Positions 6,400-60,114 are shown, counted from the stretch's first letter. The stretch is DNA of 64,000 bases from Squalus acanthias (GCA_030390025.1 JASTWF010000327.1:62001-126000); one strand, 5' to 3'. Numbers and translations are program-made. Notes: a model not told the origin generated them from the sequence alone.

Positions 6400-7074
6400 T
6401 CACATGTGAACTCGCTGGTGTCTCAGCAGGCTGGATAAATGAGTGAATCTCCTCTCACACACGGGGCAGTTGAACGGCCTCTCCCCAGTGTGAATTCGCT
6501 GGTGCATCAGCAAGGTGGATGAACGATTGAATCCCTTCCCACACACGGAGCAAGTGAATGGCCTCTCCCCAGTGTGAACTCGCTGATGTGTCCGAAGGTT
6601 GAATGAATTAATGAATCCTTTCTCACACACGGAGCAGGTGAATGGTCTTTCCCCAGTGTGAACTTGCTGATGTTTCAGCAGCTGGAATGAATTAGTGAAG
6701 CCTTTCTCACACACAGAGCAGGTGAATGGCCTCTCCCCAGTGTGAACTCGCTGGTGTATCAGCAGGCTGGATGAATTAGTGAATCCCTTCCCACATATGG
6801 AGCAGATGAACGGCCTTTCGCCAGTGTGAACTCGCTGGTTTGTCACAAGGTTGGATGAAGTAGTGAATCCTTTCTCACACACGGAGCAAGTGAACGGTCT
6901 CTCACCAGTATGAACACGCTGGTGTAACTGGAGGCTGGATCTCTGAGTGAATCCTTTCTCACACACTGAGCAGGTGAACGGCCTCTCCCCAGTGTGACTT
7001 CGTCGATGAGTTTCCAGCTTCGATGGGGAACTGAATCCCTTCCCACAGTTCCCACATTTCCACGGTTTCTCCAT
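6400..7074 (-). CDS. C2H2 zinc-finger protein, 8 fingers, no effector domain (ZNF-A)
   Basis: Intact 224-aa ORF (8 x 28 aa) with TGERP linkers and a Kozak accATGG start. Finger 3 has His>Asn. Confidence 0.85.
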
Positions 7075-7599
7075 GGTGCGGGTGTCCTTGTGTCTCTCCG
7101 GGTTGGACCATCAGTTGAAGCCTCATCCACACACAGAACACGTGTACAGTTTCTCCCCGCTGTGAATGGTGCAATGTGCTTTCAGGTTGTGTAACTGGTT
7201 AAAACATTTCTCCTTCCACATTCAATGCCCGATGATATTCGGGTCCTGATGAATGGAGTGACTCTGTCAGATCTTGATGTGATGTTTGGTTTGAGTTTCC
7301 CGTCTGCAAATCCTCCCCTTCTAATACCCTGTAAAAGGAGTTTACAAAAGTTATCACTGTGAGTACAAGATAGAAATTCAGAACAGGCAGTTATAGTTTC
7401 TGGAAAACATTCTTTCCTCTCCTGTTCCCCCAAAGCTGTAAATCCCCGTCCCACACACTCTCCCTCCTCCCTGTGCTGAAATCCAAACCCACTGCATCAT
7501 CTCCAACATTTCTTTCCTCCACTCCCAGTTTTCTCCCTCCCTCTACTCTGGTTGGGTTCAGTTCTACACCCGTTGTGTGCAGAGTGAGAATAAAATCAA

Positions 7600-8530
7600 T
7601 GAGTCAATGATTGTCTCTCCTGGTCACTGGGACCCTGAAGCCTCGCCCACTCTTTGTTCCTTTACAAAGATGGCCACGCATGCGCTCTGCTGACTCAAAT
7701 AGCGGGACAAACCCCACTGCGCTTAGCTTTACAAAGATGAGAAGTCGCACAACACCAGGTTATAGTCCAACAGATTTATTTAAAATTACAAGCTTTTGGA
7801 GCTGTCGCCTCTTCCTCAGGTAGAGTTACTGTGAGACAATTTACCAGAATTCACAGAATAGAAACACAGAGAAAATGCAGAGATTCAAATCTATCCCTAC
7901 ATCAAAGACATACTAAGAGCACAGCCAAGACAATGAGATGTGTCCCAGGGGGTCCAACGTGTCAAAACACCTGCTGGCTGCATATCCTCTCCATTTGGAT
8001 TTGTTTCTTGTGTTTGTTTTTTTAAAAAGCTGGAAAGACCTGCAACGATGTCAAGTCACTTTCTGTAACGTGACATGAACCCGATATCCCGATTGAGGCC
8101 ATCCTCATGAGTGCGGAACTTGGCTATCAGTTTCTGCTCGATGATTTTGCGTTGTCGTGCATCCCAAAGGCCGCCTTGGAGAACGCTAACACGCAGATCC
8201 GAGGCTGAATGCCCTTGACTGCTGAAGTGTTCCCCTTTACAAAGATGGCCGCAGTCAATCCGGGCCTGTTACCGGGAAAAAGCCCGGTAAGCGCAAACGC
8301 GGAACCTGTAGGTTCTTATTCCGGGCTTGCGGCCTACACCAGGTGCTTATGAGACCCACCCGCCGGATCCATTACCTCGGCCTCTGTCCGACGCCAGCTC
8401 TCGGCCAGCTCTGATCAAAGTCACACTGCGCATGCTCCAAACACTGTCCAGCACTGCGCCTGCGCTCTGGTCTCATGTAGTGTGAATAGGGCACATTCTC
8501 CCCTCGCGGGGCATGCTGGGTAATAGACCC
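7600..8530 (-). promoter_or_regulatory. Putative promoter/first exon P1 of ZNF-A
   Basis: CpG-rich, with YY1-like AAGATGGCC, NRF1-like TGCGCATG/TGCGCCTGCGC and a donor-like GAG|GTAATG near 8375 (minus). Paralogous to 39200-39660. Confidence 0.5.
7740..8235. mobile_element. Penelope 3' fragment with TSD
   Basis: Reverse complement of about 2380-2700 plus a pLTR piece. Flanked by ctttacaaagatg near 7727 and 8236; absent from the paralogous 39.3 kb site. Confidence 0.8.
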
Positions 8531-8679
8531 GCCATTGAAAGCCCCAAATATTGAATGGAGAATGATTTTCTGTGTACCGATTGAGATAAAATTAATAAAT
8601 AATTCATACAGAAACCCAAGTGCACGGGCACTCTGCCATCGTTCAGACTTGGATAACAGCAGAATCCAAGCCCTGCAGT

Positions 8680-9790
8680 CACATGTGAACTCACTGGTGT
8701 CTCAGCAGGTGAGGTGAATATCTTCCCACACACAGGATATTTAAACAGCCTCTCTCCAGTATGAAAGCGCTGATCGTGTATCAGCTGCTTTGAACTTTTA
8801 AAGCTTTACTCACAGTAAAAGTTCTCAATGTGGACTCTCTGGAGTGGGTGAGATGAGCGAGTGAATCTCTTATAAAAACAGAAAATGCTGGAAATATTCA
8901 GCAGGTCAGGAGAAATAAACAGAGTTAACGTTTCAGGTCGATGACCCTTCGTCAGAACTGAAACAAGCTGGAGATGGAACAGGTTTTTGAGGAAATGCAG
9001 GGGCAGGGAAAATGGGGAGGGGAGGAAAGAACAAAAGGGAAGGTCCGTGATAGGATGGAAGGCAGGAGAGATTAAGAGACATTAAGAGAGATTAAGAGAT
9101 GGTGCAAGGCAAAAGGAGATGGTAATGGGACAAGTAAAGAAACAAAAGATGGCTCTAGATGAAGTGTAAATGGCAGAATGAAAGACAGCTGCCATGTGGG
9201 AGAGAAAAAAAAAATAAATGGAAAAAAAAAGATAGAGGCAGAGGTTATGGTCTGAAATTGTTGAACTCTATGTTGAGTCCGGAAGGCTGTAAAGTGCCTC
9301 ATCAAAAGATGAGGTGCTGTTCCTCGAGCGTACGTTGAGCTTCATTGGAACAGTGTAAGAGGCCGAGGACGGTGAGGTCTGAGTGGGAGTGGAGTGGAGA
9401 ATTAAATTGACAGGCGACCGGAAGCTCGGGGTCACCCTTACGGACTGAACGGAGGTGCTCTGCAAAGCGGAACCTCTTTCCACACTCAGCTGATGAACGG
9501 CCTCTCTCCGGTGTGACTATCTATGCGTTTCCACCTCAGACGGGTGACTGAATCCATTTCCACCATCGCCACATTTACACTGTTGATTCAGGTGGGTGCA
9601 CGAGTCTCACAGGCTATACGATTGGTTGAAGGTGTGTTCACACACAGAACACGTGTCCTGTTTCTCCCCGCTGTGATTGGTGCTATTCCCTTCTATATCC
9701 AAAGGCGATTGATATTCAGATCCTGATGCAATGTTTGGTTTAAGTTTCCCATCTGCAAATCCTCCCCTTCTAATACCCTGCAAATGGTGT
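8680..9790 (-). pseudogene. Old degenerate ZNF cassette (psi-B), interrupted by a Penelope fragment
   Basis: Decayed finger, leader and tail sequences. Paralog at 39810-40520. Confidence 0.75.
8875..9470 (-). mobile_element. Penelope-like 3' fragment (second family) with minimal hammerhead motif
   Basis: Matches 22180-22690. Minus strand ctgacgaagggtcatcgacctgaaacgtta near 8925-8956. Confidence 0.8.
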
Positions 9791-10819
9791 TTACAAAAGT
9801 TGCTAATTTAAGTACAGGATAGAAATTCAGAACAGACAATTCTAGTTTATATAGAACATTCTGTCTCTTCCTGTTCCTCCTAAGCTGTAAACTCCCCATT
9901 CTCCACACTCTCCCTCCATCCTCACTGTCTAAAGTCAACATTCATTAAACCGTCTGGGATTTTGTTTTTCCCCCTTCTCTCCAGAAGGTGCTGAATCTGG
10001 CTGGGTGCAAGTCCACAGACATTAGTTAACCTCTGGTGCCTCACCTTCAGTTGACACAGTGAGTGTCAGCAGGGTTTCCACTGTGGTCGGCATCACAGCC
10101 GAGTCCAATCCTGCCCTCGATTGACATCCAAACACTGCCCAGCTGAGGTCACTGGATCGGCATCAAGAGCAGGGGCACCGGCTGATTTTTACTCTTGTTT
10201 AGCCCAGTGGTACTGAGGCCAATTATAGCCCCTGAGCTGCCTTGGCTGAGATCAACAAACAGCACAGATCAAGCATTGAACTTGGGACCTTCCCAGTCAG
10301 TCGTGCAGAGTGTTCTAAAATTTGGGCGGGTGGTGGTGGTGGGGGGGGGGGGGGGGGGGGGGGTGGGGGGCAGGGAGTGGGGTGGAGGGTTAGAGCAGAA
10401 TATTTTGAAACAAATGTTACTCCACCTTTAAATCAAATCTTCGTCACACTGAAAAATTCTGAAGTCGTTCAAAATTAAACAAGTATGTCAAATGGGTCTT
10501 CAAAAAGTAGTGAGACATTTTAGAAAGGCTCAAGTCACTAAAATAGACAGGTTTACAGTCACTGCACTGAGTACAGAAGGGAGCTATTGTTAATAGGAGC
10601 TCTGTTAGTGAAGTCCTCCGACACGCCAAGATAAATGGGTCTGTTCCTTTAACTATAAATATGCAGAGAAAAGGGGTCACCGTCCCTTTAAATATCTTCC
10701 CATTCCCCCAGGCAGTGGGAGGAGGAACAGTACGTATTCTCTTTATATCGTGACCCAGCGGGCCATGCGCAGGAACTCGCTCTATGAGGGGATGGGGCCT
10801 CTGGAACCTGCTCTATATT

Positions 10820-11910: not shown

Positions 11911-12730
11911 TCATATATGAACTCGCTGGTGTTTCAGCAGATCCTTTTTGCTTTTAAAGCTCTTCTCACAGTCATAACATTTAAAAGGTCTCTCCTCAGT
12001 GTGAACAAGTTGATGTTCAGTGAGGTGGGATGACTGAGTGAATCCCTTCCCACACATGGAGCAGATGAATGGCCTCTCCCCAGTGTGAACTCGCTGGTGC
12101 GTCAGAAGGCTGGATGAATCAGTGAATCCCTTCCCACAATCAGTGCAGGTGAACGGCCTCTCCCCAGTGTGAACTCGCAGATGTCTCAGCAGGTGGGATG
12201 ATCGGATGAATCCCTTCCCACACACGGAGCAGGTGAATGGTCTCTCTCCAGTGTGTGTATGTTGGTGTGTCAGCAGATGCTGTTTGCTTTTAAAACTCTT
12301 CTCACAGTCAGAACATTTAAAAGGTCTCTTGTCAGTGTGAACATGCTGGTGTGTGAGAAGGTGGGATGACTGAGTAAATCCCTTCCCACACACAGAGCAG
12401 GTGAATGGTCTCTCTCCAGTGTGAACTCGCTGGTGTATCAGCAGATCCTTTGTGCTTTTATAGCTCTTCTCACAGTCAGAACATTTAAAAGGTCTCTCCC
12501 CAGTGTGAACTCGCTGGTGTGCCAGGAGGTTTGATAAAGCATTAAATCCCTTCCCACATTCGATGCAGGTGAATTTCCTCTCTCCAGTATGCACTCGCTG
12601 GTGTGTATGGAGGCTGGATGACTGAGTGAATCCTTTCCCACACACAGAGCAGATGAACGGCCTCTCCCCCGTGTGACTGCGTCGATGAGTTTCCAGTTCA
12701 GATGGATAACCATTTCCACGGTTTCTCCAT
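11911..12730 (-). pseudogene. C2H2 ZNF cassette, 10 fingers, frameshifted in finger 1 (ZNF-C)
   Basis: ATG at 12730 is followed by a 23-nt deletion (820+23=843 nt, i.e. 280 aa + stop). The remaining 9 fingers are open. Confidence 0.8.
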
Positions 12731-13949
12731 GGTGCGGGTGTCCTTGTGTCTCTCCAGGTTGGATGATCAGTTGAAGCCTCGTCCACACACAGAACACGTG
12801 TACGGTTTCTCCCCGCTGTGAACGGTGCGATGTTTTTTCAGGCAGTGTAACTGGTTAAAGCTTTTTCCACAGTCAGTGCACTGGAACACTCTCACTCGGG
12901 TGTGTGTGTCTCGGTGCTTTTCCAGTCACTCTGATCTTTGAAATCTTTTCCCATACAGAACAGGCAAATATTTCTCCTTTCACATTCAAAGGCTGATGAT
13001 ATTCCCTGTAAAAGCAGTTTACAAAAGACATCACTGTAAGTTCAGGATAAAACTGCAGTACAGATAATTCTAGTTTCTATGGAACATTCTTTCCTCTCTT
13101 TTACATAGAATTACATAGATTGTACAGCACAGAAACAGGCCATTCGGCCCAACTAGTCCATGCGGTGTTTATGCTCCGCACGAGCCTCCTCCCATCTCTC
13201 TTCATCTCACCCTATCAGCATCTCCTTCTATTCCTTTCTCCCATGTGTTTATCCAGCTTCCCCTGAAATGCATCCCTGCTATTCGCCTCAACTACTCCCT
13301 GTGGCAGCAAGTTCCACATTCTCAGCACTCTCTGGGTGAAGGAGTTTAATCTAAATAAGACTTTCCTGGGCAGCCAATGAGCACTGCTGCCTCTTCTGTG
13401 CATTTCCTGGCGAGGCTAAACAGTTGATATTTTCTGATCAAAAAGAGCTGAGCTCGGCAGCATTAGTCCTGTTTTGCCTCCCTTGGAGACCAGGTGTACG
13501 AGCAGAGTGAGCGCAGCCTTCACAGCAACCGCAATAAAATTGTTACAGTTGTGAAGGAACTATGTGTCAGTGCACTGGACCACAAACAAAGTATGTGTCG
13601 ATTATTGTCTGATTGCGCTACTGTGACATTTTAAAGGCGCTATATAAAGGTAAGTTGTTGTTGGTGTGAGTTTGCGGTGTGTAAATGCTGCCCTTCTCAC
13701 AGCCTGTAAAAGGAGTTTCCAAAAGCCATGACTGTGAGTCCAGGATAGAAATTGACAAGATTCTCTCCTCCTGGTTCCTGGCCAAGGGGGCCGCGCATGC
13801 GCCCTGCTGCCCCCTGAGCCTGTCAAGATGGCGGCCGTTAACCCGGGCCTGTCACCGGGAGAAAGCCCCGCAGCTGCCGCCCCGCTCGGGGCAAAGGCCC
13901 GGCCCGGAGGCTCTTGTTCGGGGCCTGAGGCCCACCCCAGGTGTTTGTG

Positions 13950-14400
13950 CAGCGGATAATGTTGAGTGTTTTAATAATGGGGCCTGGGGCCGCACTCGGG
14001 GTGTGTGCAGCCCGCGTCCCCCCGGGGTTTATTAACCCGCTCCCTGAGCTCTCTCACCTGATGTGTCAGCGGCTGCTGCCAAGATCCGCGCATGCTCAGC
14101 TCTCCTTTCGTTGTTCAGGTTCAAAGGTCAAGACCCGCCCCTCCCACACTCCGATTGGTTGGAGGACCCGCCGCCCGCTCGGTCCTCCAGGCCCGCCCCG
14201 CTCTTCCTATTGGTCCGGAGCTCCCGTCAATTACCCGGGCAGTGTGAGCTGAGCATGCGCGGACCTTGGCAGCAGCCTGCTGACACATCAGGTGAGAGAG
14301 CTCAGGGAGCGGGTTAATAAACCCCGGGGGGACGCGGGCTGCACACACCCCGAGTGCGGCCCCCAGGCCCCATTATAAGATCAGTGAACATTATCCGCCT
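13950..14400. promoter_or_regulatory. Palindromic bidirectional CpG promoter P2 with mirrored first exons
   Basis: About 150-bp inverted arms (13951-14102 and 14246-14398), each carrying an NRF1-like GCGCATGC and a CAG|GTGAGA donor. The core has ATTGG (CCAAT) and CCGCCC boxes. Lies between divergent ZNF genes. Confidence 0.75.
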
Positions 14401-14805: not shown

Positions 14806-15235
14806 GGAACCAATGAGTGTAGAACTGAACCCAGCCAGAGTCAGCACCTTCAGGGGAGGAGAGGGAGGGGAACCAGTGAGTGTAGATCTGAACCCAGCCA
14901 GAATCAGCACCTTCAGGGGAGGAGAGGGAGAGGAACCAGTGAGTGTAGAACTGAACCCAGCCAGAGTCAGCACCTTCACGGGAGGAGAGGGAGAGGAACC
15001 AGTGAGTGTAGAACTGAACCCAGCCAGAGTCAGCACCTTCAGGGGAGGAGAGGGAGGGGAACCAGTGAGTGTAGAACTGAACCCAGCCAGAGTCAGCACC
15101 TTCAGGGGAGGAGAGGTAGAGGAACCAGTGAGTGTAGAACTGAACCCAGCCAGAGTCAGCACCTTCAGGGGAGGAGAGGTAGAGGAACCAGTGAGTGTAG
15201 AACTGAACCCAGCCAGAGTCAGCACCTTCAGGGGA
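14806..15235 (+). repeat. 62-bp intronic minisatellite (about 7 copies)
   Basis: Unit gaaccagtgagtgtagaactgaacccagccagagtcagcaccttcaggggaggagagggagg. Confidence 0.95.
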
Positions 15236-15679
15236 GAATAAAAATGTTGGAGATGGTGCGATGGTTTAGATTTCAGCACAGGGAGGAGGGAGAGTGTGTG
15301 GGACGGGGATTTACAGCTTTGGGGAACAAGAGAGGAAAGAATGTTCCATAGAAACTAGAATTGTCTGTTCTGAATTTCTATCCTGTACTCACAGTGATGA
15401 CTTTTGTAAACTCCTTATACAGGGTATTAGAAGAGGGGGAGGATTTACAGCCGGGAAACTCAAACCAAACATCACTTCAAGATCTGACAGAGTCACTCAA
15501 TAGAGCAGGACCCGAATATCATCGGCGTTTGAATGTGGAAGGAGAAATGTTTTAACTAATTACACAGCCTGAAAAAACATCGCACCAATCACATTGGGGG
15601 CAAACAGTACACTTGTTCTGTGTGTGGACGAGGCTTCAACTGATCGTCCAACCTGGAGAGTCACAAGGACACCCGCACC

Positions 15680-16103
15680 ACGGAGAAAACCGTGGAAATG
15701 TGGGGACTGTGGGAAGGGATTCAATTACCCGTCTGAGCTGGAAATTCATCGACGCAGTCACACCGGGGAGAGGCCGTTCACCTGCTACGTGTGTGAGAAG
15801 GGATTCACTCAGTTATCCACCCTGCAGATACACCAGCGAATTCACACCGGGGAGAGGCCGTTCACCTGCCCCGTGTGTGGGAAGGGATTCACTCAGTCAT
15901 CTAATCTGCTGAGACACCAGCAAGGTCACACTGGGGAGAGGCCATTCACCTGCTCCATATGTGGGAAGATATTCTCTCAATTATCTGGCCTTCTGGCACA
16001 CCAGCGAGTTCATACAGGGGAGAGGCCATTCACCTGCTCCGTGTGTGGGAAAGGATTCAGCTGTCCATCCCACCTGCTGAAACACCAGCGAGTTCACAAG
16101 TGA
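15680..16103 (+). pseudogene. C2H2 ZNF cassette, 5 fingers, ACG start plus 1-nt insertion (ZNF-D)
   Basis: accACGgagaaaaccg has an extra A. 424 nt = 5 x 84 + 3 + 1. Confidence 0.75.
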
Positions 16104-17012: not shown

Positions 17013-17029
17013 TAATTGAATCATATCAG

Positions 17030-23039: not shown

Positions 23040-23310
23040 GTGCCGCAAGCCCCGCCCCTCCCACACTCCGATTGGTTGGGGGACCCGCCGCCAGCTCGGT
23101 CCTCCAGACCCGCCCCGCTCTTCCTATTGGTCCGCCAGCTCCAGTCAATCACCCGGGCAGTGTGAGCTGAGCATGCGCGGACCTTGGCAGCAGCCGCTGA
23201 CACATCAGGTGAGAGAGCTCAGGGAGCGGGTTAATAAACCCCGGGGGGACGCGGGCTGCACACACCCCGAGTGCGGCCCCAGGCCCCATTATTAAAACAC
23301 TCAACATTAT
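23040..23310 (+). promoter_or_regulatory. Single arm of the P2 promoter/first exon
   Basis: Near-identical to 14135-14398 and 44870-45110. Donor CAG|GTGAGA near 23208. Confidence 0.7.
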
Positions 23311-23926
23311 CCGCTTCACAAACACCCGGGGTGGGCCTCAGGCCCCGAACAAGAGCCTCCGGGCCGGGCGTTTGCCCCGAGCGGGGCGGCAGCTGCGGGG
23401 CTTTCTCCCGGTGACAGGCCCGGGTTAACGGCCGCCATCTTGACAGGCTCAGGGGGCAGCAGGGCGCATGCGCGGCCCCCTTGGCCAGGAACCAGGAGGA
23501 GAGAATCTTGTCAATTTCTATCCTGGACTCACAGTCATGGCTTTTGGAAACTCCTTTTACAGGCTGTGAGAAGGGCAGCATTTACACACCGCAAACTCAA
23601 ACCAAACATCACATCAAGATCTGACAGAGTCACTCCATTCATCAGGACCCGAATATCATCGGCCTCTGAATGTGGAAGGAGAAATGTTTGTCTGTTCTGT
23701 CTGTGGGAAAAGATTTCAAACATCAGTGTGACTGGAAAAGCACCGAGACACACACACCCGAGTGAGAGTGTTCCAGTGCACTGACTGTGGAAAGAGCTTT
23801 AACCAGTTACACAGCCTGAAAAAACATCGCACCGTTCACAGCGGGGAGAAACCGTACACGTGTTCTGTGTGTGGACGAAGATTCAACTGATCGTCCAACC
23901 TGGAGAGTCACAATGAATCCCGCACC

Positions 23927-24671
23927 ATGGAAAAACCGTGGAAATGTGGGGACTATGGGAAGGGATTCAGTTCCCCATCGAAGCTGGAAACTCATCGACG
24001 CAGTCACATTTACCTGCTCCGTGTGTGGGAAGGGATTCACTCATTCATCCAACCTTCTGAGACACCAGCGAGTTCACACTGGGGAGAGGCCATTCACCTA
24101 CTCCGTGTGTGGGAAGAGATTCACTCAGAGATCCAGCTTGCTGATCCACCAGCGAGTTCACACTGGGGAGAGGCCGTTCACCTGCTTCATGTGTGGGAAG
24201 GGATTCACTCGTTCATCTGAGCTTGTGAAACACCAGCACATTCACACACGAGAGAGGCTGTTCACCTGCTCCGTGTGTAAGAAAGGATTCACTTGTTCAT
24301 TCGAGCTTTTGAGACATCAACGCATTCACACTGGAGAGAGGCCATTCACCTGCTCCACGTGTGGGAAGGGATTTAATCGACCATCCAAACTTCTGACACA
24401 CCAGTGCATTCACACTGGAGAGAGGCCGTTCACCTGTTCCGTGTGTGGGAAGGGATTCACTAATTCATCTGATGTTCTGACAGACCAGCGAGTTCACACT
24501 GGGGAGAGACTGTTCACCTGCTCCATGTGTGGGAAGGGATTCACTTGTTCATCCAGCCTGCTGACACACCAGCGAGTTCACACTGGGGAGAGGCCGTTCA
24601 CCTGCTCCGTGTGTGGGAAGGGATTCACTCAATCATCCCACCTGCTGAGACACCAGCGAGTTCACAAGTGA
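23927..24671 (+). pseudogene. C2H2 ZNF cassette, 9 fingers, 14-nt deletion after finger 1 (ZNF-E)
   Basis: 745+14=759 nt = 252 aa + stop. Also Cys>Tyr and His>Asp ligand losses. Confidence 0.8.
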
Positions 24672-30814: not shown

Positions 30815-31489
30815 TCACTTGTGAACTCGCTGGTGCCTCAGCAGGTTGGATGAGAGAGTGAAGCCCTTCCCACACACGGAGCAGGTGAACGGCCTCTCCC
30901 CAGTGTGAACTCGCTGATGTGTCAGCAGGTTGGATGACTGAGTGAATCCCTTCCCACACACAGAGCAGGTGAACGGCCTCTCCCCACAGTGAACTCGCTG
31001 GTGTGTCAGCAGGGTGGATGATTGATTGAATCCCTTCCCACACACGGAGCAGGTGAACGGCCTCTCCCCAGTGTGAACTTGCTGGTGTCTCAGAAGGTTG
31101 GATGACCGAGTGAATCCCTTCCCACACTCAGCACAGGTGAACGGTCTCTCCCCAGTGTGAACTCGCTGGTGTGTCAGCAGGGTGGATGATTGACTGAATC
31201 CCTTCCCACACACGGAGCAGGTGAACGGCCTCTCCGCAGTGTGAACTTGCTGGTGTCTCAGAAGGTCGGATGACCGAGTGAATCCCTTCCCACACTCAGC
31301 ACAGGTGAACGGTCTCTCCCCAGTGTGAACTCGCTGGTGTGTCAGAAGGTTGGATGATTGAATGAATTCCTTTCCACACACGGAGCAGATGAACGGCCTC
31401 TCCCCGGTGTGACAGCGTCGATGAATTTTCAGCTGGGAAGGGTAATTGAACCCCTTCCCACAGTCCTCACATTTCCACGGTTTCTCCGT
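30815..31489 (-). CDS. C2H2 ZNF cassette, 8 fingers, open frame beginning at ACG (ZNF-A')
   Basis: 675 nt stop-free from aacACGg at 31489, the same length as ZNF-A. Contains an internal two-finger duplication. Confidence 0.65.
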
Positions 31490-32064
31490 GTTGCGGGTGT
31501 CCTTGTGTCTCTCCAGGTTGGACGATCAGTTGAAGCCTCGTCCACACACAGAACACGTGTACGGTTTCTCCCCACTGTGAACGGTGCGATGTTTTTTCAG
31601 ACTGTGTAACTGGTTAAAGCTCTTTCCACAGTCAGTGCACTGGAACACTCTCACTCGGGTGTGTGTGTCTCGGTGCTTTTCCAGTCACACTGATGTTTGA
31701 AATCGTTTCCCACAGACAGAAGAGACAAACATTTCCCCTTCTATATTCAAAGGCCGATGATATTCAGGTCCTGATGAATTGAGTGACTCTGAGATTTTAA
31801 CGTGATGTTTGGTTTGAATTTCCCGTCTGTAAATCCTCCTCTTCTCACACCCTGTAAAAGGAGTTTACAAAAGTCATCACTGTAATTACAGGATAGAAAT
31901 TCAGAACAGACAATTCTAGTTTCTATGCAACATTCTTTCCTCTCTTGTTCCCCCAAAGCTGTAAATCCCCGTCCCACACACTCTCCCTCCTCCCTGTGCT
32001 GAAATCATACCATCGCATATCGCCCAACAGTTTGTCCCCCACTCCCAGTTTTCTCCCTCGACGC

Positions 32065-42839: not shown

Positions 42840-43418
42840 TCACTTGTGAACTCGCTGGTGTGTCAGCAGGTGGGATGGACAGCTGAATCCCTTCCCACAC
42901 ACAGAGCAGTGAACGGCCTCTCCCCGGTGTGAACTCGCTGGTGTGTCAGCAGGTGCTGTTTGCTTTTAAAACTCTTCTCAGTCAGAATCTTTAAATGGTC
43001 TCTTGTCAGAGTGAACAAGTTGGTGTGTCAGCAGGTTGGATGAAGAAGTGAATCCCTTCCCACACACGGAGCAGGTGAATGGCCTTTCCCCAGTGTGAAT
43101 GCGTTGGTGTGTCAGCAGATCCTTTGTGCTTTTATAGCTCTTAGAACATTTATAAGATTTCTCCTCAGTGTGAACTCGCTGGTGCGTCAGGAGGTTTAAT
43201 AAAGTATTAATTCCCTTCCCGCATTCAATACAGGTGAATGACCTCCCTCCAGTGTGAATTCACTGGTGTGTCAGAAGTTTGGATGACCGAATGAATCGCT
43301 TCCCACATAATGAGCAGGTGAACGGTCTCTCCCCGCTGTGACTGCGTCGATGAGTTTCCAGCAGTGATGCACAATTGAATCCCTTCCCACAGTCCCACAT
43401 TTCCACGGTTTCTCCGTG
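42840..43418 (-). pseudogene. C2H2 ZNF cassette, about 7 fingers, multiple lesions (ZNF-C')
   Basis: ACG start, premature stop and indels. Shares fingers [18 protein letters not shown] and [10 protein letters not shown] with ZNF-C. Confidence 0.8.
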
Positions 43419-44137
43419 GTGCGGGTGTCCTTGTGTCTCTCCAGGTTGGACGATCAGTTGAAGCCTCGTCCACACACAGAACACGTGCACGATTTCTCCC
43501 CGCTGTGAATGGTGTGATGTTTTTTCAGGCTGTGTAACTGGTTAAAACATTTCTCATCCACATTCAAATGGCGATGATGTTCAGGTCCTGATGTATTGAG
43601 TGTCTGATCTCTGTCAGATCTTGACGTGATGTTTGCTTTGAGTTTTCCGTCTGCAAATCCTCCCCATCTAACACCCTGTGAAAGGAGTTTACAGAAGTCA
43701 TCACTTTAAGTACAGGATAGAAATTCAGAACAGACAATTCTAGTTTTTATGGAACATTCCTTTCTTTCTTGTTCTCCACTGAAGGTGCTGACTCTGGCTG
43801 GGTTCAGTTCTACACTCACTGGTTCTCCTCATTTTCCTTCCCTGAAGGTGCTGACTCTGGCTCTAACCATCTTTCCAATACACTGTCCTTCCTTATAAGC
43901 TTTTCTTCTGTAATATCTCACAATTTTGGTGAGGGGCACTCCTTGACCTGTCACAATTTCTCCTCCAATTACAGAGGCTCCCTGACCCGTCACCATTCCT
44001 ATTTCATTTACAGACGCTTCCTGACCCGTTTCCATTTCTCCTCCATTTACAGACGCTCCCTGACTTCCTGTCTGTCCCGGAGTTTGGCGCGGGGCCCCTT
44101 TGCTGAGCGAATCGGGAGAAACCGGGAAGCGGCGGGC

Positions 44138-45112
44138 GGATAATGTTGAGTGTTTTAATAATGGGGCCTGGGGCCGCACTCAGGGTGTGTGCAGCCCGCG
44201 TCCCCCCGGGGTTTATTAACCCGCTCCCTGAGCTCTCTGGACTCAACATAGAGTTCAACAATTTCAGATCATAACCTCGGCCCCTATCATATATATATTT
44301 TTTATCCACACTTTTTGTTTGTGCCTTTTGTTCTTCTCTCCCACATGGCAGCTGTCTTTCATTCTGCCAGCGCAATTCACACTTCATCTCGAGCCATCCT
44401 TTGTTTCTTAACCTGTCCCATTACCATTCCTTTTGCCTTGAATATCTCTTAATGTCTCTTTACTTCTCCTGCCTTCTATCCTATCACAGACCTTCCCTTT
44501 TGTTCTTTCATCCCCTCCCCCATTTCCCAGCCCCTAAACTTGCTTTAAAACTGTTCCATTTCCTGCTTTTTTCCAGTTCTGCCGAAAGGTCATCGACCTG
44601 AAACGTTAATTCTGTTTCTCTCTTCACAGATGCTGCCTGACCTGCTCAGTATTTTCTGTTTTTATCCCTGAGCTCTCTCACCTGATGTCAGAAGCTGCTG
44701 CCAAGGTCCGCGCATGCTCAGCTCACACTGCCCGGGTGATTGACAGGAGCTCCGGACCAATAGGAACAGTGGGGCGGGGCTGGAAGTCCGCGCGAGCTGC
44801 GGGTCCTCCAACCAATCGGAACAACAGAAGGTTGGCTGCTCAGCAGGTCCCGCCCCCTTGCTGCGCCGCCATTGATTGGATGACCCGCCACCGGCTCGGT
44901 CCTCCAGCCCCGCCCCGCTCTTCCTATTGGTCCGGAGCTCCCATCAATCACCCGGGCAGTGTGAGCTGAGCATGCGCGGACCTTGGCAGCAGCCGCTGAC
45001 ACATCAGGTGAGAGAGCTCAGGGAGCGGGTTAATAAACCCCGGGGGGACGCGGGCTGCACACACCCCGAGTGCGGCCCCAGGCCCCATTATTGAAACACT
45101 CCACATTATCCG
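44138..45112. promoter_or_regulatory. Palindromic bidirectional promoter P2'; left arm split by a Penelope fragment (44239-44665)
   Basis: Inverted arms 44666-44820 and 44870-45020, continuing into 44138-44238 and 45020-45112. TSD ccctgagctctct flanks the insert. Confidence 0.75.
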
Positions 45113-45890: not shown

Positions 45891-46908
45891 CCAGTGCACT
45901 TACACAAAGTTCCTTCATAACTGTAACAATTTTATTGCGGTTGCTGTGAAGGCTGCGCTCACTCTGCTCGTACACCTAGTCTCCAAAGGAGGCTAAACAG
46001 GACTAATGCTGCCGAGCTCAGCTCTTTTTGATCAGAAAATATCAACTATTTCGCCTCGCCAGGAAATGCACAAAAAAAGGCAGCAGTGCTCATAGACTGA
46101 CCGGGAAAGTACTATTTAGATTAAACTCCTTCACCCAGAGAGTGCTGAGAATGTGGAACTTGCTGCCACAGGGAGTAGTTGAGGCAAATAGAAAGAAATA
46201 CTTGCATTTATATAGCGCCTTTCACGACCACCGGACTTCTCAAAGCGCTTTACAGCCGATGAAGTACTATTTGAAGTGGATTCAGAGTCGTAATGTGGGA
46301 AACGCGGCAGCCAATTTGCGCACAGCAAGGTCCCACAAACAGGAATGTTTGTGAATAGCATAATGCATTCAAGAGGAAGCTGGATAAACTCATGGGAGAA
46401 AGGAATAGAAGGAGATGCTGATAGGGTGAGATGAAGAGAGATGGGAGGAGGCTCGTGTGAAGCATGAACACCGCATGGACCAGTTGGGCCGATTGGCCTG
46501 TTTCTGTGCTGTACAATCTATGTAATTCTATGTAATAAGAGAGGAAAGAATGTTCCATAGAAACTGGAATTATCTATTCTGCATTTTTATCCTGAACTTA
46601 CAGTGATGTCTTTTGTAAACTGCTTTTACAGGGAATATCATCGGCCTTTGAATGTGGAAGGAGAAATGTTTGTCTGTTCTGTCTGTGGGAAAAGATTTCA
46701 AACATCAGTGTGACTGGAAAAGCACCGAGACACACACACCCGAGTGAGAGTGTTCCAGTGCACTGACTGTGGAAAGAGCTTTAACCAGTTACACAGCCTG
46801 AAAATACATCGCACCATTCACAGCGGGGAGAAACCGTACACGTGTTCTGTGTGTGGACGAGGCTTCAACTGATCGTCCAACCTGGAGAGACACAAGGACA
46901 CCCGCACC

Positions 46909-47751
46909 ATGGAGAAACCATGGGAATGTGGGGACTGTGGGAAGGGATTCAGCTCCCCGTCCCGGCTGGAAACTCATCGACGCATTCACACCGGGGAGAG
47001 GCCGTTCGTCTGCTCCGAGTGTGGGAAGGGATTCAGTCAGTCATCCCACCTTCTGAGACACCAGCGAGTTCACACTGGGGAGAGACCGTTCAGTTGCTCT
47101 CACTGCAGGAAGAGATTCGGGCGGTTATCGAACCTCACTGACCACCAGCGAGTTCACACTGGAGAGAGGCCATTCAGTTGCTCTCAATGCGGGAAGAGGT
47201 TCAGGCAGTTATCGAACCTCACGGAACACATGCGAGTTCACACTGGAGAGAGGCCATTCACCTGCACTGAGTGTGGGAAGGTTTTTGCTCGATTAGCCAA
47301 CCTCACTAAACACCAACTTGTTCACACTGAAAAGAGACCTTTCAAATGTTCTGAGTGTGGGAAGAACTTTAAAAGCACAAGAGATCTGCTGACACACCAA
47401 CACACTCACACTGGGGAGAGGCCGTTCACCTGCTCCATGTGTGGGAAGGGATTTGCTAATTCATCCCACCTGCTGACACACCAGCGCGTTCACACTGGGG
47501 AGAGGCCGTTCACCTGCTCCATTTGTGGGAAGGGATTCATTCAGTCATCCCACCTGCTGAGACACCAGCGAGTTCACACCGGAGAGAGGCCGTTAACCTG
47601 CTCCGTGTGTGGGAAGGGATTCACTGATTCATCCCACCTGCTAAATCATCAGCGAGTTCACACTGGGGAGAGACTGTTCACCTGCTCCGTATGTGGGAAG
47701 AGATTCACTCGGTCATCCCACCTGCTGAAACACCAGCGAGTTCACAAATGA
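46909..47751 (+). CDS. C2H2 zinc-finger protein, 10 fingers, no effector domain (ZNF-D')
   Basis: Intact 280-aa ORF (10 x 28) with all Cys/His ligands present and a Kozak accATGG start. Confidence 0.88.
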
Positions 47752-52200: not shown

Positions 52201-52545
52201 GCAAACCTCCCCGTGAGGATATTGGTTCCGGCCCTGTTGAGTTGCAAGCCTTCGGGCCTGTACAGGTCCCACCTCCCCCAGAACCAGTCCCAATGCCTCA
52301 GGAATCTAAAGCCCTCCCTCCTGCACCTTCTCTCCAGCCACACATTCATCTGCTCTGTCCTCCTATTTCTATACTCACGAGCGCGTGGCACCGGGAGTAA
52401 TCCGGAGATTACTACCTTTGAGATCCTGCTTTTTAATCTCTCCTAGCGCCCTAAAATCTGCCTGCATGACCTCATCCCTCTTTCTACCTATGTCGTTGGT
52501 ACCGATATGGACCACGACCTCTGGCTGTTCACCCTCGCCCCTCAG
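49205..52545 (-). mobile_element. Near full-length degraded CR1 LINE
   Basis: VVHIGTNDIG esterase, NARS, ETWL, GDFN, SDH and RT motifs. Confidence 0.9.
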
Positions 52546-52579
52546 ATTATTCAGTGCCCGGGGAGGCTGTAGGGCTTTA

Positions 52580-53412: not shown

Positions 53413-53431
53413 ACACACAGTGGTCAGCTTA

Positions 53432-53825: not shown

Positions 53826-53826
53826 A

Positions 53827-55300
53827 GTCCCATCAAACAAGCCCAGGGCAGGTACAGCACGAGTTAGATACAGAGTAAAGCTCCCTCTACACTGTCCCAT
53901 CAAACACTCCCAGAACAGGTACAGCACGGGTTAGATACAGAGTAAAGCTCCCTCTACACTGTCCCATCAAACAATCCCAGGGCAGGTACAGCACGGGTTA
54001 GATACAGAGTAAAGCTCCCTCTACACTGTCCCATCACACACTCCCAGGGCAGGTACAGCACGGGTTAGATACACGGTAAAGCTCCCTCTACACTGTCCCA
54101 TCAAACACTCCCAGGGCAGGTACAGCACAGGTTAGATACAGAGTAAAGCTCCCTCTACACTGTCCCATCACACACTCCCAGGGCAGGTACAGCACGGGTT
54201 AGATACAGAGTAAAGCTCCCTCTACACTGTCCCATCAAACACTCCCAGGGCAGGTACAGCACGGGTTAGATACAGAGTAAAGCTCCCTCTACACTGTCCC
54301 ATCAAACAATCCCAGGGCAGGTACAGCACGGGTTAGATACAGAGTAAAGCTCCCTCTACACTGTCCCATCACACACTCCCAGGGCAGGTACAGCACGGGT
54401 TAGATACACGGTAAAGCTCCCTCTACACTGTCCCATCAAACACTCCCAGGGCAGGTACAGCACAGGTTAGATACAGAGTAAAGCTCCCTCTACACTGTCC
54501 CATCACACACTCCCAGGGCAGGTACAGCACGGGTTAGATACACGGTAAAGCTCCCTCTACACTGTCCCATCAAACACTCACAGGGCAGGTACAGCACGGG
54601 TTAGATACACGGTAAAGCTCCCTCTACACTGTCCCATCAAACACTCCAAGGCAGGTACAGCACAGGTTAGATACAGAGTAAAGCTCCCTCTACACTGTCC
54701 CATCACACACTCCCAGGGCAGGTACAGCACAGGTTCGATACAGAGTAAAGCTCCCTCTACATTGTCCCATCAAACATTCCCAGGGCAGGTACATCACGGG
54801 TTAGATACAGAGTAAAGCTCCCTCTACATTGTCGCATCAAACACGCCCAGGGCAGGGACAGCACGGGTTAGATACAGAGTAAAGCTCCCTCTACACTGTC
54901 CAATCAAACACTCCCAATGCAGTGTAGAGGGAGGTACAGCACGGGTTAGATACAGAGTAAAGCTCCCTCTACATTGTCCCATCAAACACTCCCAGGGCAG
55001 GTACAGTACAGGTTAGATACAGAGTAAAGCTCCCTCTACACTGTCCCATCAAACACTCCCAGGGCAGGTACAGTACGGGTTAGATACAGAGTAAAGCTCC
55101 CTCTACACTGTCCAATCAAACACTCCCAATGCAGTGTAGAGGGAGGTACAGCACGGGTAAGATACAGAGTAAAGCTCCCTCTACATTGTCCCATCAAACA
55201 CTCCCAGGGCAGGTACAGTACAGGTTAGATACAGAGTAAAGCTCCCTCTACACTGTCCCATCAAACACTCCCAGGGCAGGTACAGTACGGGTTAAATACA
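53827..55300 (-). repeat. 67-bp tandem array (about 21 copies), joined to a short 46-bp array (55300-55410)
   Basis: Reverse complement of the 4668-5846 unit. Confidence 0.95.
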
Positions 55301-55419
55301 GTCACTGACACCAATCTCCTCCTGTCTGATATAAACCAGCCCCACAGTCACTGACACCAATCTCCTCCTGTCTGATATAAACCAACCCCACAGTCACTGA
55401 CACCAATCTTCTCCTAATA

Positions 55420-56604
55420 TGAACATAAGAAATAGGAGCAGGAATAGGCCACTTGGCCCCTCGAGCCTGCTCCGCCATTCAATAAGATCATGGCTGATCT
55501 TGGGCTCAAAGCCACTTCCCCGCCTTCTCCCCATAACCCTTCACTCCCTTATCTTGCAAAAATCTGTCTATCTCCACCTTAAATGTATTTAATGACCCAG
55601 CCTCCACAGCTCTCTGGGGCAGAGAATTCCACAGATTTACGATCCTCTGAGAGAAGAAATTCCTCCTCATCTCAGTTCTAAAAGGGCGACCCCTTATTCT
55701 GAAACTGTGCCCCCGCGTTCTAGATTTCCCCACGAGGGGAAACATCCTCTCTGCATCTACCCTGTCGAGCCCCCTCAGTATCTTATATGTTTCAATAAGA
55801 TCACCTCTCATTCTTCTAAATTCCAATGAGTATAGGCCCAACCTGCTCAACCTTTCTTCATAAGTCAACCCCCTCATCTCAGGAATCAACCTAGTGAACC
55901 TTCTCTGATCTGCCTCCATGCAAGTATATCCTTCCTTAAATAAGGAGACCAAAACTGTACGCAGTGCTCAAGGTGTGGTCTCACCAATACCTTGCACAGT
56001 TGTAGCAGGACTTCCCTGCTTTTATACTCCAACCCCCTTGAAATAAAGGCCAACATTCCATTTGCCTTTTTGATTACTTGCTGTACCTGCAGGCTAACTT
56101 TTTGTGTTTCATGCACAAGGACCCCCAGGTCCCTCTGAACTGTAGCATTTTGTAATCTCTCTTGATTTAAATAATAATTTGCTTTTTTATTTTTCCTGCC
56201 AAAGTGGATAACCTCGCACTTTCCCACATTATACTCCATCTGCCAAATGTTTGCCCACTCACTTAGCCTGTCTATATCCCTTTGCAGGTTCTTTGAATCC
56301 TCTGCACAACTTGCTTTCCCACCCATCTTTGTATCATCCGCAAACTTGGCTACATTACACTCGGTCCCTTCATCTATGTCATTAATGCAGATTGTAAATA
56401 GTTGAGGCCACAGCACCGATCCCTGTGGCACCCCACTAGTTACCGTTTGCCAACCGGAAAATGACCCATTTATCCCGACTCTCTGCTTTCTGTTAGTTAG
56501 CCAATTCTCTATCCATGCTAATATATTACCCTCAATTCCGTGAGGTCTTATCTTATGCAGTAACCTTTTATGTGGCACCTTATCGAATGCCTTCTGGAAA
56601 TCCA
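55420..56604 (-). mobile_element. CR1 RT to 3' end fragment
   Basis: DFQKAFD, GVPQGS and FADD. Confidence 0.9.
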
Positions 56605-57179
56605 GCTCCTGTCTGATATAAACTGATCCCACAGGCCCAGAACGATTAAACTCAGCCCATTACTTGGATTGGACTTGTCTCCATTCCTGTGCCGAGGGGA
56701 TTGCTGTACCAGACGGGAGGAGCAACATTTGGGGACTCTCGATTCTCCACCAATTCCCATTCCCCTTCTTTCTGGTGGATAATGGAGGTGCCACTGTGTG
56801 TAATGTGCAAGTCAGTAAGAATTGTCCGCGAGGATTAATCAACACTTTCTAATTGGAGATGTTAATCAGTGGAACTTTTCAGACAATAAATTGTAGATTT
56901 TGTACCAAAGGTCAATTTAGGGTTAAAGTAAAATTCATAATTTTGTCAAATAATTTCTTATGAAAGTCCTGAATTAAGGGGAAATGTCACAGACAGCAGT
57001 TCTTAAAGGGACACTGCAGCCCCAACAAGTCAATCAGCTTTCTAGCCAGAATATTAACCCTTTAACTGGGCTGGGGTTTATTAACATCAGCAGAAACAAA
57101 CCCCAACTGTCAGAATGAACATGGTTCAGTCCTGGATGTGATTAACAGCAGCAATAACAGCAGAATCCAACCCCTGCAG

Positions 57180-57360
57180 TCACTTGTGAATTCGCTGGTG
57201 TCTCAGCAGGCTGTACGATCGAGAGAAACCCTTCCCACACACGGAGCAGGTGAACGATCTCCCCCCAGTGTGAATTCGTTGGTGTGTCAGCAGGGTGGAT
57301 GAACAAGTGAATCCCTTCCCACACACGGAGCAGGTGAACAGCCTCTCCCCGGTGTGAACT
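57180..57360 (-). pseudogene. Truncated ZNF cassette (last 2 fingers plus conserved 3' flank to 56605)
   Basis: Two fingers ending HK-TGA. The 5' part is replaced by a LINE fragment. Confidence 0.8.
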
Positions 57361-58112
57361 CTCAGTGATGGTAATGCCGTTGAATGTCAAGGGTCAGTGG
57401 TTAGACTCTCTCTTGTTGGAGATAGTCAATGCCTGGCACTTGTTTGGCGCGAATGTTACTTGCCACTTATCAGCTCAAGCCTGAATGTCATCCAAGTCTT
57501 GCTGCATGCGGGCACAGACTATTTCATTAACTGAGGAGTTGTGAATGGAATTGATCACTGTGCAATCATCAGTGAACATCCCCACTTCTGACCTTATGGT
57601 AAGGGAAGGACATTGGTGAAACAGCTGAAGATGGTTAAGCCTAGGACACTGCCTTGAGGCACTCCTGCAGCGATGTCCTGGGGCTGAGATGATTGACCTT
57701 CAACAAACACAACTATCTTCCTTTGTGCTAGGTATGACTCCAGCCAGTGGAGCGTTTCCCCCCTGATACCCATTGGCTTCATTTTTACTCGGGCTCCTTG
57801 ATGCCACACTCGGTCAAATGCTGCCTTGATGTCAAGAGCAATCACTCTCACCTCACCTCTGGAATTCAGCTCTTCTGTCCATGTTTGGATCAAGTCTGTA
57901 ATGAGGTCTGGAGCCGAGTGGTCGTGGTGGAACCCAAACTGAACATTGGTGAGCAGGTTATTGGTGAGTAATTGCCGCTTGACAGCACTGTCGATGACAC
58001 CTTCCATCACTTTGCTGATGATTGAGAGTAGACTGATGGGGCAGTAATTGGCCGGATTGGATTTGTCCTGCTTTTTGTGGAAAGGACATACCTGGGAAAT
58101 TTTCCACATTGT
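57361..58112 (-). mobile_element. CR1-group LINE RT fragment
   Basis: NY.PISLLS, QFGF, LDIKAAFDRVWH and GVPQGSVLG. Confidence 0.85.
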
Positions 58113-58307: not shown

Positions 58308-58582
58308 CAGCACCTTCAGTATAGGATCGCAGCTCAGAATTAGCAATGTACTGGAGGGCAAACAGTGACTGGGCCCGAACCCCACCATCACACAGCACCT
58401 TCAGTATAGGCTCACAGCTCAGAATTAGCAATGTACTGGAGGGCAGACAGTGACTGGGGCCGAACCCCACCATCACACAGCACCTTCAGTATAGGCTCAC
58501 AGCTCAGAATTACCACTTGGCGAGGTACTGGAGGGCAGACAGTGACTGGGGCCGAACCCCACCATCACACAGCAGCTTCAGG
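58308..58582 (+). repeat. About 85-bp tandem repeat (3 copies)
   Basis: Unit cagcaccttcagtataggctcacagctcagaattagcaatgtactggagggcagacagtgactggggccgaaccccaccatcaca. Confidence 0.85.
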
Positions 58583-58749
58583 AGTGAATTGGAGAAAAGT
58601 CCGAGCCTGCGATAAATGGGGATTTCAAACAGCGAGGATGAGGCGATGAGAGAGTGTGTGGGACGAGGGTTTGATAGCTCAGGAGGGACAAGAGAGGAAA
58701 GAATGTTCCAGGGAAACGAGTACTGTCTGTTGAGAATTTCTACCCTGTA

Positions 58750-59205
58750 CGTAACTCGATGTAAAGTTATGAGGACAGGTTGCACAGACTAGGCTTGTAT
58801 TCCCTTGAATATTGAAGATTAAGGGGTGATCTGATTGAGGTGTTTAAGATGATTAAAGGAGTTGATGGGGTAGATCGAGAGAAACGATTTCCTCTGATGG
58901 GAGAGTCCACAACAAGGGGACAGAACCTTCCAATCAGAGCTCGGCCATTCAGGGGTGATTTTCAGGAAGCACATCTTCACACAAAGGGTATTGGAAATCT
59001 GCAACTCTCTCCCCCAAAAAACTGTCGAGGCTGAGGGGCAATTGAAAATTTCAAAACTGAGTGTGCGAGATTTTTGTTAAGCAAGAGTACTAAAGGTTAC
59101 AGAACCAAGGCGGGTAAATGGAGTTAAGATACAGACCAGCCCTGATCTAATTGAATGGTGGAACAGGCCTGAGGGGCTGAATGGCCTACTCCTGTTCCTA
59201 TGTTG
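58750..59205 (+). mobile_element. CR1 3' fragment in ZNF intron
   Basis: LRGDLIEVFKMIKG.D.VD and a CR1 3' UTR. Confidence 0.8.
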
Positions 59206-59607
59206 CTACCTACAGTGATGACATTTGTAAACTCCTTTTACAGGGTGTTAGAAGGGGAGGATATTCAGACAGGAAACTCAAACCAAACATCACGTCAAGA
59301 TCTGACAGAGTCACTCGATTCATCAGGACCTGAATATCATCGGCCTTTGAATGTGGAAGGAGAAATGTTTGTCTGTTCTGTCTGTGGGAAAAGATTTCAA
59401 ACATCAGTGTGACTGGAAAAGCACCGAGACACACACACCCGAGTGAGAGTGTTCCAGTGCACTGACTGTGGAAAGAGCTTTAACCAGTTACACAGCCTGA
59501 AAAAACATCGCACCATTCACAGCGGGGAGAAACCGTACACGTGTTCTGTGTGTGGTCGAGGCTTCAACTGATCATCCAACCTGGAGAGACACAAGGACAC
59601 CCACACC

Positions 59608-60114
59608 ATGGAGAAACCGTGGAAATGTGGGGACTGTGGGAAGGGATTCCATTACCCATCCAAGCTGGAAATCCATCGGCGCAGTCACACTGGGGAGAGG
59701 CCGTTCACCTGCTCCGTGTGTGGGAAAGGATTCACTGTGTCATCCCACCTGCTGGCACACCAGCGAGTTCACACTGGGGAGAGGCCGTTCACCTGCTCCG
59801 AGTGTGGGAAGGGATTCACTCAGTCATCCAACCTGCTGACACACCAGCGAGTTCACACTGATAAGAAACCTTTTAAATGTTCTAAGTGTGAGCTGAGCTT
59901 TAAAAGCACAAATGGTCTGCTGTGTCACCAACGCACTCACACCGGGGAGAGGCCATTCCCCTGCTCTATGTGTGGGAAGGGATTCCCTCTGTCATCCCAC
60001 CTGGTGAAACACCAGCGAGTTCACACTGGGGAGAGACCGTTCACCTGCTCCATGTGTGGGAAGGGATTCACTCAGTCATCCAACCTGCTGAAACACCAGC
60101 GAGTTCACAAGTGA
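59608..60114 (+). CDS. C2H2 zinc-finger protein, 6 fingers, no effector domain (ZNF-F)
   Basis: Intact 168-aa ORF (6 x 28) with a Kozak accATGG start. Confidence 0.85.

Follow-up and report, generated by a model that had tools for sequence, protein, structure and literature searches.

Among the closest described systems to the genes considered here are the KRAB-ZNFs of tetrapods and the FiNZ-ZNFs of cyprinids, zinc-finger (ZNF) families that, in the accessible text of Wells et al. 2023 (PMC10547256), comprise hundreds to thousands of clustered paralogues, carry their fingers in one last exon, and combine conserved zinc ligands with variable helix residues and many broken copies. The same source tabulates 475-3,586 ZNF open reading frames (ORFs) in cartilaginous fish, and the word 'shark' is absent from its main text. 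KRAB loss in cartilaginous fishes is noted in the accessible part of the whale shark paper (PMC8455134). Here, we analysed the ZNF cassettes of a 64,000-nt stretch of Squalus acanthias DNA (GCA_030390025.1 JASTWF010000327.1:62001-126000; the window), in which finger arrays are preceded by a leader of degenerate, or dead, fingers. The family to which these cassettes belong behaves like a tandem ZNF family of the KRAB or FiNZ type, with all the features named above, and is a member of neither. Unlike those families, it has no reachable effector exon, a predicted non-coding first exon, a dead-finger leader with upstream ORFs (uORFs), and ACG as the majority codon at the start position.

Three further systems, each taken from the accessible part of its source, offer partial parallels. 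The human KRAB-less LINE-1 binder ZNF146/OZF (PMC8896011) is likewise a finger-only protein of about ten fingers and shows that transposon binding is possible; it is, however, a single gene, whereas the present family numbers thousands and is known from sequence alone. EIF4G2/DAP5, which starts at GUG (PMC9082881), shares the lack of an in-frame AUG and the strong -3/+4 context. Genes of that type are single and have ribosome evidence, whereas here there are at least 900 ACG copies with ATG-polymorphic paralogues, and the evidence is comparative only. START, or structure-assisted initiation at non-AUG codons (PMC11165317), is matched by an in-frame CUG with a hairpin of -19 kcal/mol at +20, more stable than the -15 kcal/mol taken there as criterion, but in the shark family the CUG is dispensable and the ACG lies inside the stem. 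A literature search that took in few subscription papers, with supplement files 3-5 of PMC10547256 outside it, found no account of the leader or of an ACG-started ZNF family.

ACG is the commonest codon at the leader-array junction

At least 1,900 short zinc-finger genes share one dead-finger leader, and ACG is the commonest codon at the junction of leader and array. It seems rather probable that most of these genes are translated at a low level from the ACG, behind two uORFs, with recurrent switching between ACG and ATG. The cassettes are putative compact, effector-less tandem zinc-finger genes with a shared non-coding dead-finger leader. Their parts are listed for the copy with its junction at 59608.

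59244..59607 (+): 5′ part of the ZNF exon, predicted to be untranslated: a spacer and three dead fingers, beginning at a ttttacag/G acceptor motif 364 nt upstream of the junction
59351..59446 (+): uORF1, 31 codons, out of frame and in a weak context, from sequence reading and the upstream AUG inventory
59365..59412 (+): uORF2 (MFVC...SV and stop), in frame, 15 codons, stopping at TGA1 (59410-59412)
59395..59502 (+): 108-nt core (-213..-106), conserved at the nucleotide level
59569..59571 (+): TGA2, a stop in 83% of copies
59581..59583 (+): in-frame CUG in the context AAC-CUG-G, 27 nt before the junction; a possible secondary start, dispensable
59600..59631 (+): predicted 12-bp hairpin spanning the junction codon (-8..+23)
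59608..60114 (+): open 6-finger array with ATG junction

A 29-mer containing TGA1 had 1,916 exact matches in the 3.7-Gb genome and its reversed control none, which is far beyond chance. Genome-wide codon counts are of exact-pattern matches and, because the flanks had to match exactly, are lower bounds. The first-pass annotation had described two fixed UGAs. For TGA1 this was very nearly so, with TGA in 1,916 of 1,962 matches (97.7%; otherwise TGG 18, TAA 10, TCA 7, AGA 4, TGC 3, CGA 2, TTA 2). TGA2 proved not to be fixed: the position was a stop in 1,222 of 1,470 matches (TGA 1,198, TAA 24) and a sense codon in 248, mostly CGA or AGA among those listed. No selection for a stop was seen at TGA1, where TAA (10) and TGG (18) can be compared and which is as invariant as neighbouring sites. 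There are hints that TGA2, rather than TGA1, may be under selection as a stop, with clade effects possible: TGA at TGA2 became TAA 24 times and TGG once, and copies with CGA there were less often intact (8/22 vs 78/112; p = 0.006 by a loose criterion, p = 0.24 by a strict one).

At the junction, ACG occurred 919 times, ATG 398 times, and codons whose third base is not G 51 times (48 ACA, 3 other); this count takes in ACG, ATG and codons not ending in G, with other NNG codons outside it. The earlier view, that the G of the H-TGEKP linker had been replaced by ATG, was thus too narrow for the family, in which most copies have ACG and changes between ACG and ATG recur. It was also too narrow for the window. 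Among the eight window cassettes with a junction, five read ATG (7074-, 12730-, 23927+, 46909+ and 59608+) and three ACG (15680+, 31489- and 43417-); the copy with TGAs at 31687/31528, cited in support of ATG, reads aacACGG. Other points of the description were confirmed: all ten TGAs lie where they had been placed, 198 and 39 nt upstream of the junction codon, with the leader peptide as written, and the finger counts of 8, 10, 5, 9, 8, 10 and 6 agree with the array lengths. The 'small indels' in the arrays are, however, real frameshifts, affecting three of the seven arrays described. Four of the eight window cassettes have open arrays (7074, 31489, 46909, 59608), the other four being broken by frameshifts. 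Overlooked were the acceptor motif 364 nt before the junction, the out-of-frame upstream AUG, a sister subfamily whose junction codon is GGG, and the strong junction hairpin.

Arrays behind ACG are under constraint

For comparison among copies, 174 junctions were sampled in 1.664 Mb, made up of the window, 100 tiles in hit-dense blocks and 60 tiles on pattern matches. Copies truncated at the end of a tile were left out of the intactness counts; among 158 main-type copies, 89 with ACG and 56 with ATG were uncut. Later tests took in further loci from pattern searches. The usual traits of poly-ZNF birth and death were present: clustered paralogues, C2H2 arrays with TGERP linkers, and frequent pseudogenes.

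Strictly intact arrays were found in 40 of 89 ACG copies and 27 of 56 ATG copies (p = 0.73). Of the intact ACG arrays, 15/40 contained no Met at all, and in most others the first Met lay beyond finger 3; an upstream AUG was open into the array in only 3 of 130 copies. A constrained ORF without a usable in-frame AUG, as seen in genes with a non-AUG main ORF, is what was found. Fourteen ACG-ACG sister pairs gave omega of 0.05 at the C/C/F/L/H/H positions and 0.53 overall (p = 1.6e-6), with 8 frameshifts. The corresponding values for 11 ATG-ATG pairs were 0.04 at zinc ligands and core hydrophobics and 0.41 overall, with 5 frameshifts, and seven pairs with an ACA copy, partly from one clade, showed a ligand-site omega of 0.30 and 12 frameshifts. 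Rare transversions destroying Cys or His numbered 1.9 per 1000 in arrays behind ACG and 0.4 per 1000 in those behind ATG; in the non-coding flanks of ACG copies the rate was 6.8-11.

Constraint began at the junction. The ratio of nonsynonymous to synonymous change (N/S) was 0.40 over codons 1-13 of finger 1 (p = 0.008), compared with 0.93 over codons -8..-1 and 1.30 in dead finger 3. A start further down finger 1 was considered and rejected, because only 2 of the 33 ACG arrays that are broken have their lesions confined to finger 1. The claim that arrays differ mainly at the recognition helix was borne out insofar as helix residues -1, 3 and 6 are the most variable and the zinc ligands are under purifying selection. 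Positive selection was not shown, helix omega being 0.69-1.11 between gene pairs and 1.33-1.81 between finger pairs, the latter without a significance test.

ACG and ATG interchange at a CpG site

Deamination of the CpG in ACG is expected to yield ATG and ACA about equally. On a tree of 148 copies, blurred by conversion, the junction CpG showed 36 CG/TG changes and 2 CG/CA changes, against 64 and 60 at eight control CpGs (p = 3e-7). At least 35 switches between ACG and ATG were counted in these copies, with 12 mixed sister pairs at 0.3-7% distance. The context of the junction codon was nearly uniform (-3A in 93/93, +4G in 92/93, +5A in 93/93), and such a -3/+4/+5 context is described as favoured for non-AUG starts in the accessible text of PMC9082881.

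The sequence around the junction is predicted to fold into a hairpin with a median of -19.2 kcal/mol in ACG copies, compared with -6.6 ± 2.9 kcal/mol over 715 internal linkers (minimum -14.2); with ACA it is weaker, at -13.2 kcal/mol. A change from GGG to ACG perfects the stem CCACGG/CCGTGG and may have arisen by template switching. This hairpin begins at +20 from the in-frame CUG 27 nt upstream, near the working range given in the accessible text of PMC11165317 (efficient at +20 and optimal at +23 to +26, with a threshold of -15 to -21 kcal/mol). Initiation might then occur at the CUG, with the hairpin stalling the scanning complex, ACG kept for pairing and ATG tolerated as a U-G pair. The weakening by ACA would fit, as would the lack of any indel at -30..-1 in 154 copies, which is partly an anchor effect. 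We nevertheless consider initiation at the CUG very unlikely. The 38 copies without the CUG were not enriched for ATG (24 ACG, 14 ATG). Of 34 such copies fetched, 20 were ACG copies without any start-like codon at -27; 12 of these 20 were open, three of them without any Met. In one ACG clade without the CUG the arrays are intact, whereas those of its ACA relatives, which have the CUG, are broken. No compensatory pairing was seen (+11A in 7/92 ACG and 3/56 ATG copies). Since the CUG is dispensable to open ACG arrays, ACG is the best candidate for the start. In three copies (L239, L242, L246), the CUG has itself turned into ATG, giving a regular start nine codons upstream.

Several observations weigh against translation from ACG. 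With two upstream AUGs before an ACG, very low output is predicted. The Kozak bases are inherited from linker codons and so prove little, and the hairpin keeps the ACG within its stem rather than upstream of it, with the same stability in intact and broken copies. About half of the copies are broken in each class, and 5 of 10 ACA arrays are also open. Rare Cys/His losses were about 2.5 times commoner in ACG than in ATG arrays (19/11,007 vs 5/7,282, p = 0.06), from which it follows that ACG copies are constrained, but less than ATG copies. The rare-synonymous control comprised only 5 events (observed/expected 0.85). Gene conversion from ATG donors could also import pre-filtered variation that might mimic a low omega.

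Several of these points would be expected if only ATG copies made protein, the ACG copies being an untranslated reserve, repaired by conversion between thousands of nearly identical fingers and activated by CpG deamination to ATG. The many switches and mixed sister pairs, the strong favouring of ATG over ACA at the junction and the excess of Cys/His losses behind ACG are all compatible with such a reserve. So is the state of TGA2, which is random on the tree (20 changes against a shuffled mean of 20) and therefore indicates conversion or recombination. However, ACG-ACG pairs are as constrained as ATG-ATG pairs, and even the rare Cys/His losses in ACG arrays remain at about a quarter of the flank rate. 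ACA copies should receive equal repair, yet the four more diverged ACA copies are all broken, and the mutable CpG stays in the majority or a large minority in nine organisms. We regard a silent reserve as unlikely on this evidence, and low-level translation from ACG as the better account.

The leader is non-coding and holds a conserved 108-nt core

The leader had been interpreted as a 5′ untranslated region containing uORFs, and both parts of this were supported. No amino-acid constraint was detected in any of six frames, with N/S of about 1, and at least one upstream AUG lay within the exon in 129 of 130 copies. The ATG of uORF2 was retained in 131/147 ACG/ATG copies. Within the leader, the 108-nt core had a variation of 1.2% per non-CpG site, whereas the values were 2.0-2.7% for dead finger 3, 5.6% for the spacer and 7.4% for the intron end. 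Rare transversions numbered 3.2 per 1000 in the core and 7.4 in the spacer. Pairwise distance in the core stayed at about 1.3% (1.35%) between copies 12-20% apart in their flanks. What is conserved in the core is its nucleotide sequence rather than an encoded protein or a structure, and the core recurs in other sharks. The conservation is more likely due to selection on a DNA or RNA site than to conversion focused on this common block; TGA1 seems merely to be carried along with the core.

A hairpin predicted around TGA1 (z -2.0 to -2.3) was tried as the cause of the conservation and rejected, as paired and unpaired bases vary alike (1.27% vs 1.26%) and no compensatory changes were found. Taken as a whole, the leader shows no unusual degree of structure (z +0.8). 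No Rfam family reached threshold over 59000-60400, where two chance matches had E > 2. A protein search with the peptide between the stops returned generic ZNFs and one catshark match at 88%.

That same hairpin, together with the in-frame leader and a C following TGA1, might suggest recoding: the UGAs would be read through, decoded as selenocysteine or edited, and the array would form part of one long protein from an upstream AUG. In one catshark gene model, the position of TGA1 is occupied by Trp. The frameshift test speaks against this. Behind a net leader frameshift between TGA1 and the junction, arrays were intact in 16/23 ACG copies, against 34/63 without one, and in 9/11 ATG copies, against 29/44. 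Since leader frameshifts do not reduce the intactness of arrays, readthrough is excluded, and recoding is in the main refuted. The missing amino-acid constraint, the equal variation of paired and unpaired hairpin bases, the null Rfam result, and the lack of any A>G change at either stop among the 40 of 67 rows listed point the same way, leaving recoding scarcely credible.

The leader, TGAs and ACG might also be neutral inherited scars of an ordinary birth-and-death cluster, its intact ACG arrays being young duplicates that have yet to decay. The broken half of the copies would accord with this, as would the lack of any preference for a stop at TGA1 and the leader N/S near 1. Such scars are hard to reconcile with ACG sister pairs up to 6% apart that retain omega of 0.05 at zinc ligands, with the low variation of the core even between copies with distant flanks, or with a leader common to several shark genera. 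The idea of neutral scars is thus largely contradicted already and appears highly improbable.

Gene structure and absence of an effector

Most copies carry the acceptor motif about 364 nt before the junction, and GC-rich promoter-like motifs with a catcag/gtgag donor motif occur 0.5-2.5 kb upstream of cassettes. In the promoter-like stretches are motifs which we take to be CCAAT, GC-box and NRF1-like elements. The first exon is predicted to be non-coding and spliced onto the finger exon. One contig joint (run X2) connects the donor at 23209 to exon 2, weakly, with a 20-letter side and in a run whose RNA nature is a guess; for the 18 runs of that kind, all in the form of contigs, depth carries no information on expression or exon limits. 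No GT..AG joint fell inside the leader among the joints listed (15 of 45 and 15 of 20). Divergent gene pairs have a common promoter-like stretch and were copied as inverted blocks. The retention of intron and promoter motifs argues against a retrocopy origin.

The expectation of no KRAB, SCAN or BTB exon was upheld for the domains searched genome-wide. In 3.7 Gb there was a single KRAB match (70 candidates scored), on contig C30, and there were 15 SCAN matches, 12 with stops; BTB and FiNZ profiles were not searched genome-wide. The lone KRAB match by Pfam is locus L157 (G000:C30:2101141-2101251). No effector was found in the 24 non-finger window ORFs scanned (of 102 listed), in which only reverse transcriptase (RT) and endonuclease domains of LINE type scored above cutoff. 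An upstream coding exon would in any case be unable to reach the array, because the TGAs close the frame (TGA1 being a stop in 98%). Bearing on a putative response to transposons, only the co-location of cassettes with LINE-type RT fragments was observed in the window.

The leader in other sharks, and a sister subfamily

A recent founder was not supported. Leader and junction variants were found in eight other organisms and in gene models of three shark genera, the dating across species being based on such gene models and on sequence runs of other organisms. In each of the eight, ACG made up 35-83% of contig depth at the junction. A near-cognate codon in strong context is thus shared across species, as in genes with a non-AUG main ORF. 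Four other organisms showed no majority change at core sites and several at finger-3 CpG sites (40 of 67 rows listed). As we read the frames, gene models of Scyliorhinus torazame and Heterodontus francisci hold the core in translated form, and those of Pristiophorus japonicus show an ACG-type junction. The closest proteins by identity are from sharks and rays.

A sister subfamily has GGG at the junction (normal H-T-G-E-K-P) and an intact finger 3; dead fingers 1 and 2 are absent, and most members have an upstream ATG of their own (MEAKS/MEGKS type). The subfamily accounted for 16 of 174 sampled copies, and its pattern had 299 genome-wide matches, not checked singly. Examples include loci L066, L069, L107, L136, L139 and L220 and proteins P0014, P0038 and P0129. 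The subfamily also occurs in Cetorhinus and Heterodontus gene models, and its junction hairpin is much weaker (-4 to -14 kcal/mol).

Organisation of the window

The other cassettes and predicted promoters of the window are as follows.

6400..7360 (-): deletion-type leader without TGA1, and open 8-unit array from ATG 7074
11911..13004 (-): leader (TGA 12928, 12769), ATG 12730, with a frameshift in finger 1 of the array
14045..14300: predicted bidirectional promoter with two outward exon-1 motifs, for the 12.7k (-) and 15.7k (+) genes
15424..16103 (+): deletion-type leader, ACG 15680, with a one-base frameshift in finger 1
23060..23208 (+): GC-rich promoter-like stretch and predicted short non-coding exon 1, with the catcag/gtgag donor motif at 23209
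23563..24671 (+): exon-2 leader (TGA 23729, 23888), ATG 23927, array frameshifted past finger 1
30815..31732 (-): leader (TGA 31687, 31528) and open 8-finger array from ACG 31489
42840..43712 (-): deletion-type leader, ACG 43417, broken array
44669..45016: inverted duplicate of the predicted bidirectional promoter at 14045..14300, for the 43.4k (-) and 46.9k (+) genes
46666..47751 (+): leader (TGA 46711, 46870) and open 10-finger array from ATG 46909

The deletion-type leaders (7074, 15680, 43417) have lost finger 1 and TGA1, so that the in-frame uORF is reduced to M-F-stop. The out-of-frame upstream AUG is brought into frame by the deletion, yet is terminated at TGA2. The deletion joint is also present in all four sequence runs from other organisms that were compared. 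Acceptor stubs are stranded near the promoters (13661-13735, 45320-45400), the true finger exon having been displaced by later insertions and the spacer shortened. Degenerate or 5′-truncated family remnants lie at 9470-9800, 39774-40400, 57180-57361 and 62449-62550.

Many cassettes are preceded by a 63-bp minisatellite (14806-15236, 32068-33020 in the window) of 0-11 units per copy, each unit with a gtgagt splice-donor-like motif. Intergenic minisatellites have units of 67 bp (5295-5846, 53827-55301), 46 bp (16567-17019, 26010-26965, 55298-55415, 61731-62362) and, GC-rich, 40 bp (27225-29802). A Pfam match in a minisatellite ORF at 41405 was below cutoff and was taken as chance. Broken LINE-type elements with RT and endonuclease domains lie between cassettes at 17960-21335, 33676-37224, 49400-52305 and 55400-58112.

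Proposed mechanism and implications

In the mechanism we propose, ribosomes would leak past, or reinitiate after, the uORFs of 31 and 15 codons, scan some 160-195 AUG-free bases and initiate weakly at ACC-ACG-G. Recurrent CpG change to ATG would give a stronger start and higher output. In zebrafish, according to the accessible text of PMC11620358, ribosomes stall on tandem C2H2 fingers, and Znf598-dependent decay is set off. Speculatively, weak initiation would reduce ribosome load and collisions on such stall-prone arrays, and ribosome queuing could aid ACG recognition (as far as the accessible parts of PMC9082881 and PMC6601509 go). The 108-nt core might serve as a shared regulatory site, and the proteins might bind repeats without a known repressor domain; both suggestions are speculative.

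The public shark gene models examined splice or frame-hop through the leader to reach an ATG. If ACG is indeed the default, gene models based on ATG would miss or mis-start most genes of the family. Main ORFs with a non-AUG start are known as single genes; here ACG occurs in at least 900 copies and ATG in about 400 siblings, and the family is a natural experiment on start-codon choice and the persistence of weak starts. It also allows a direct test of large finger repertoires in vertebrates without KRAB-ZNFs. The conserved core would be an instance of former, now dead coding sequence taken into use again as a regulatory element in common. A wider interpretation, which we hold only tentatively, is that sharks may possess a family of transcription factors, with thousands of genes, that relies on a non-AUG start, with ACG as a low-output default, CpG change to ATG as a heritable volume switch for each gene, and an exapted 108-nt element co-regulating the family. 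If true, the family would be unusually large for one that is translated from a non-standard start codon.

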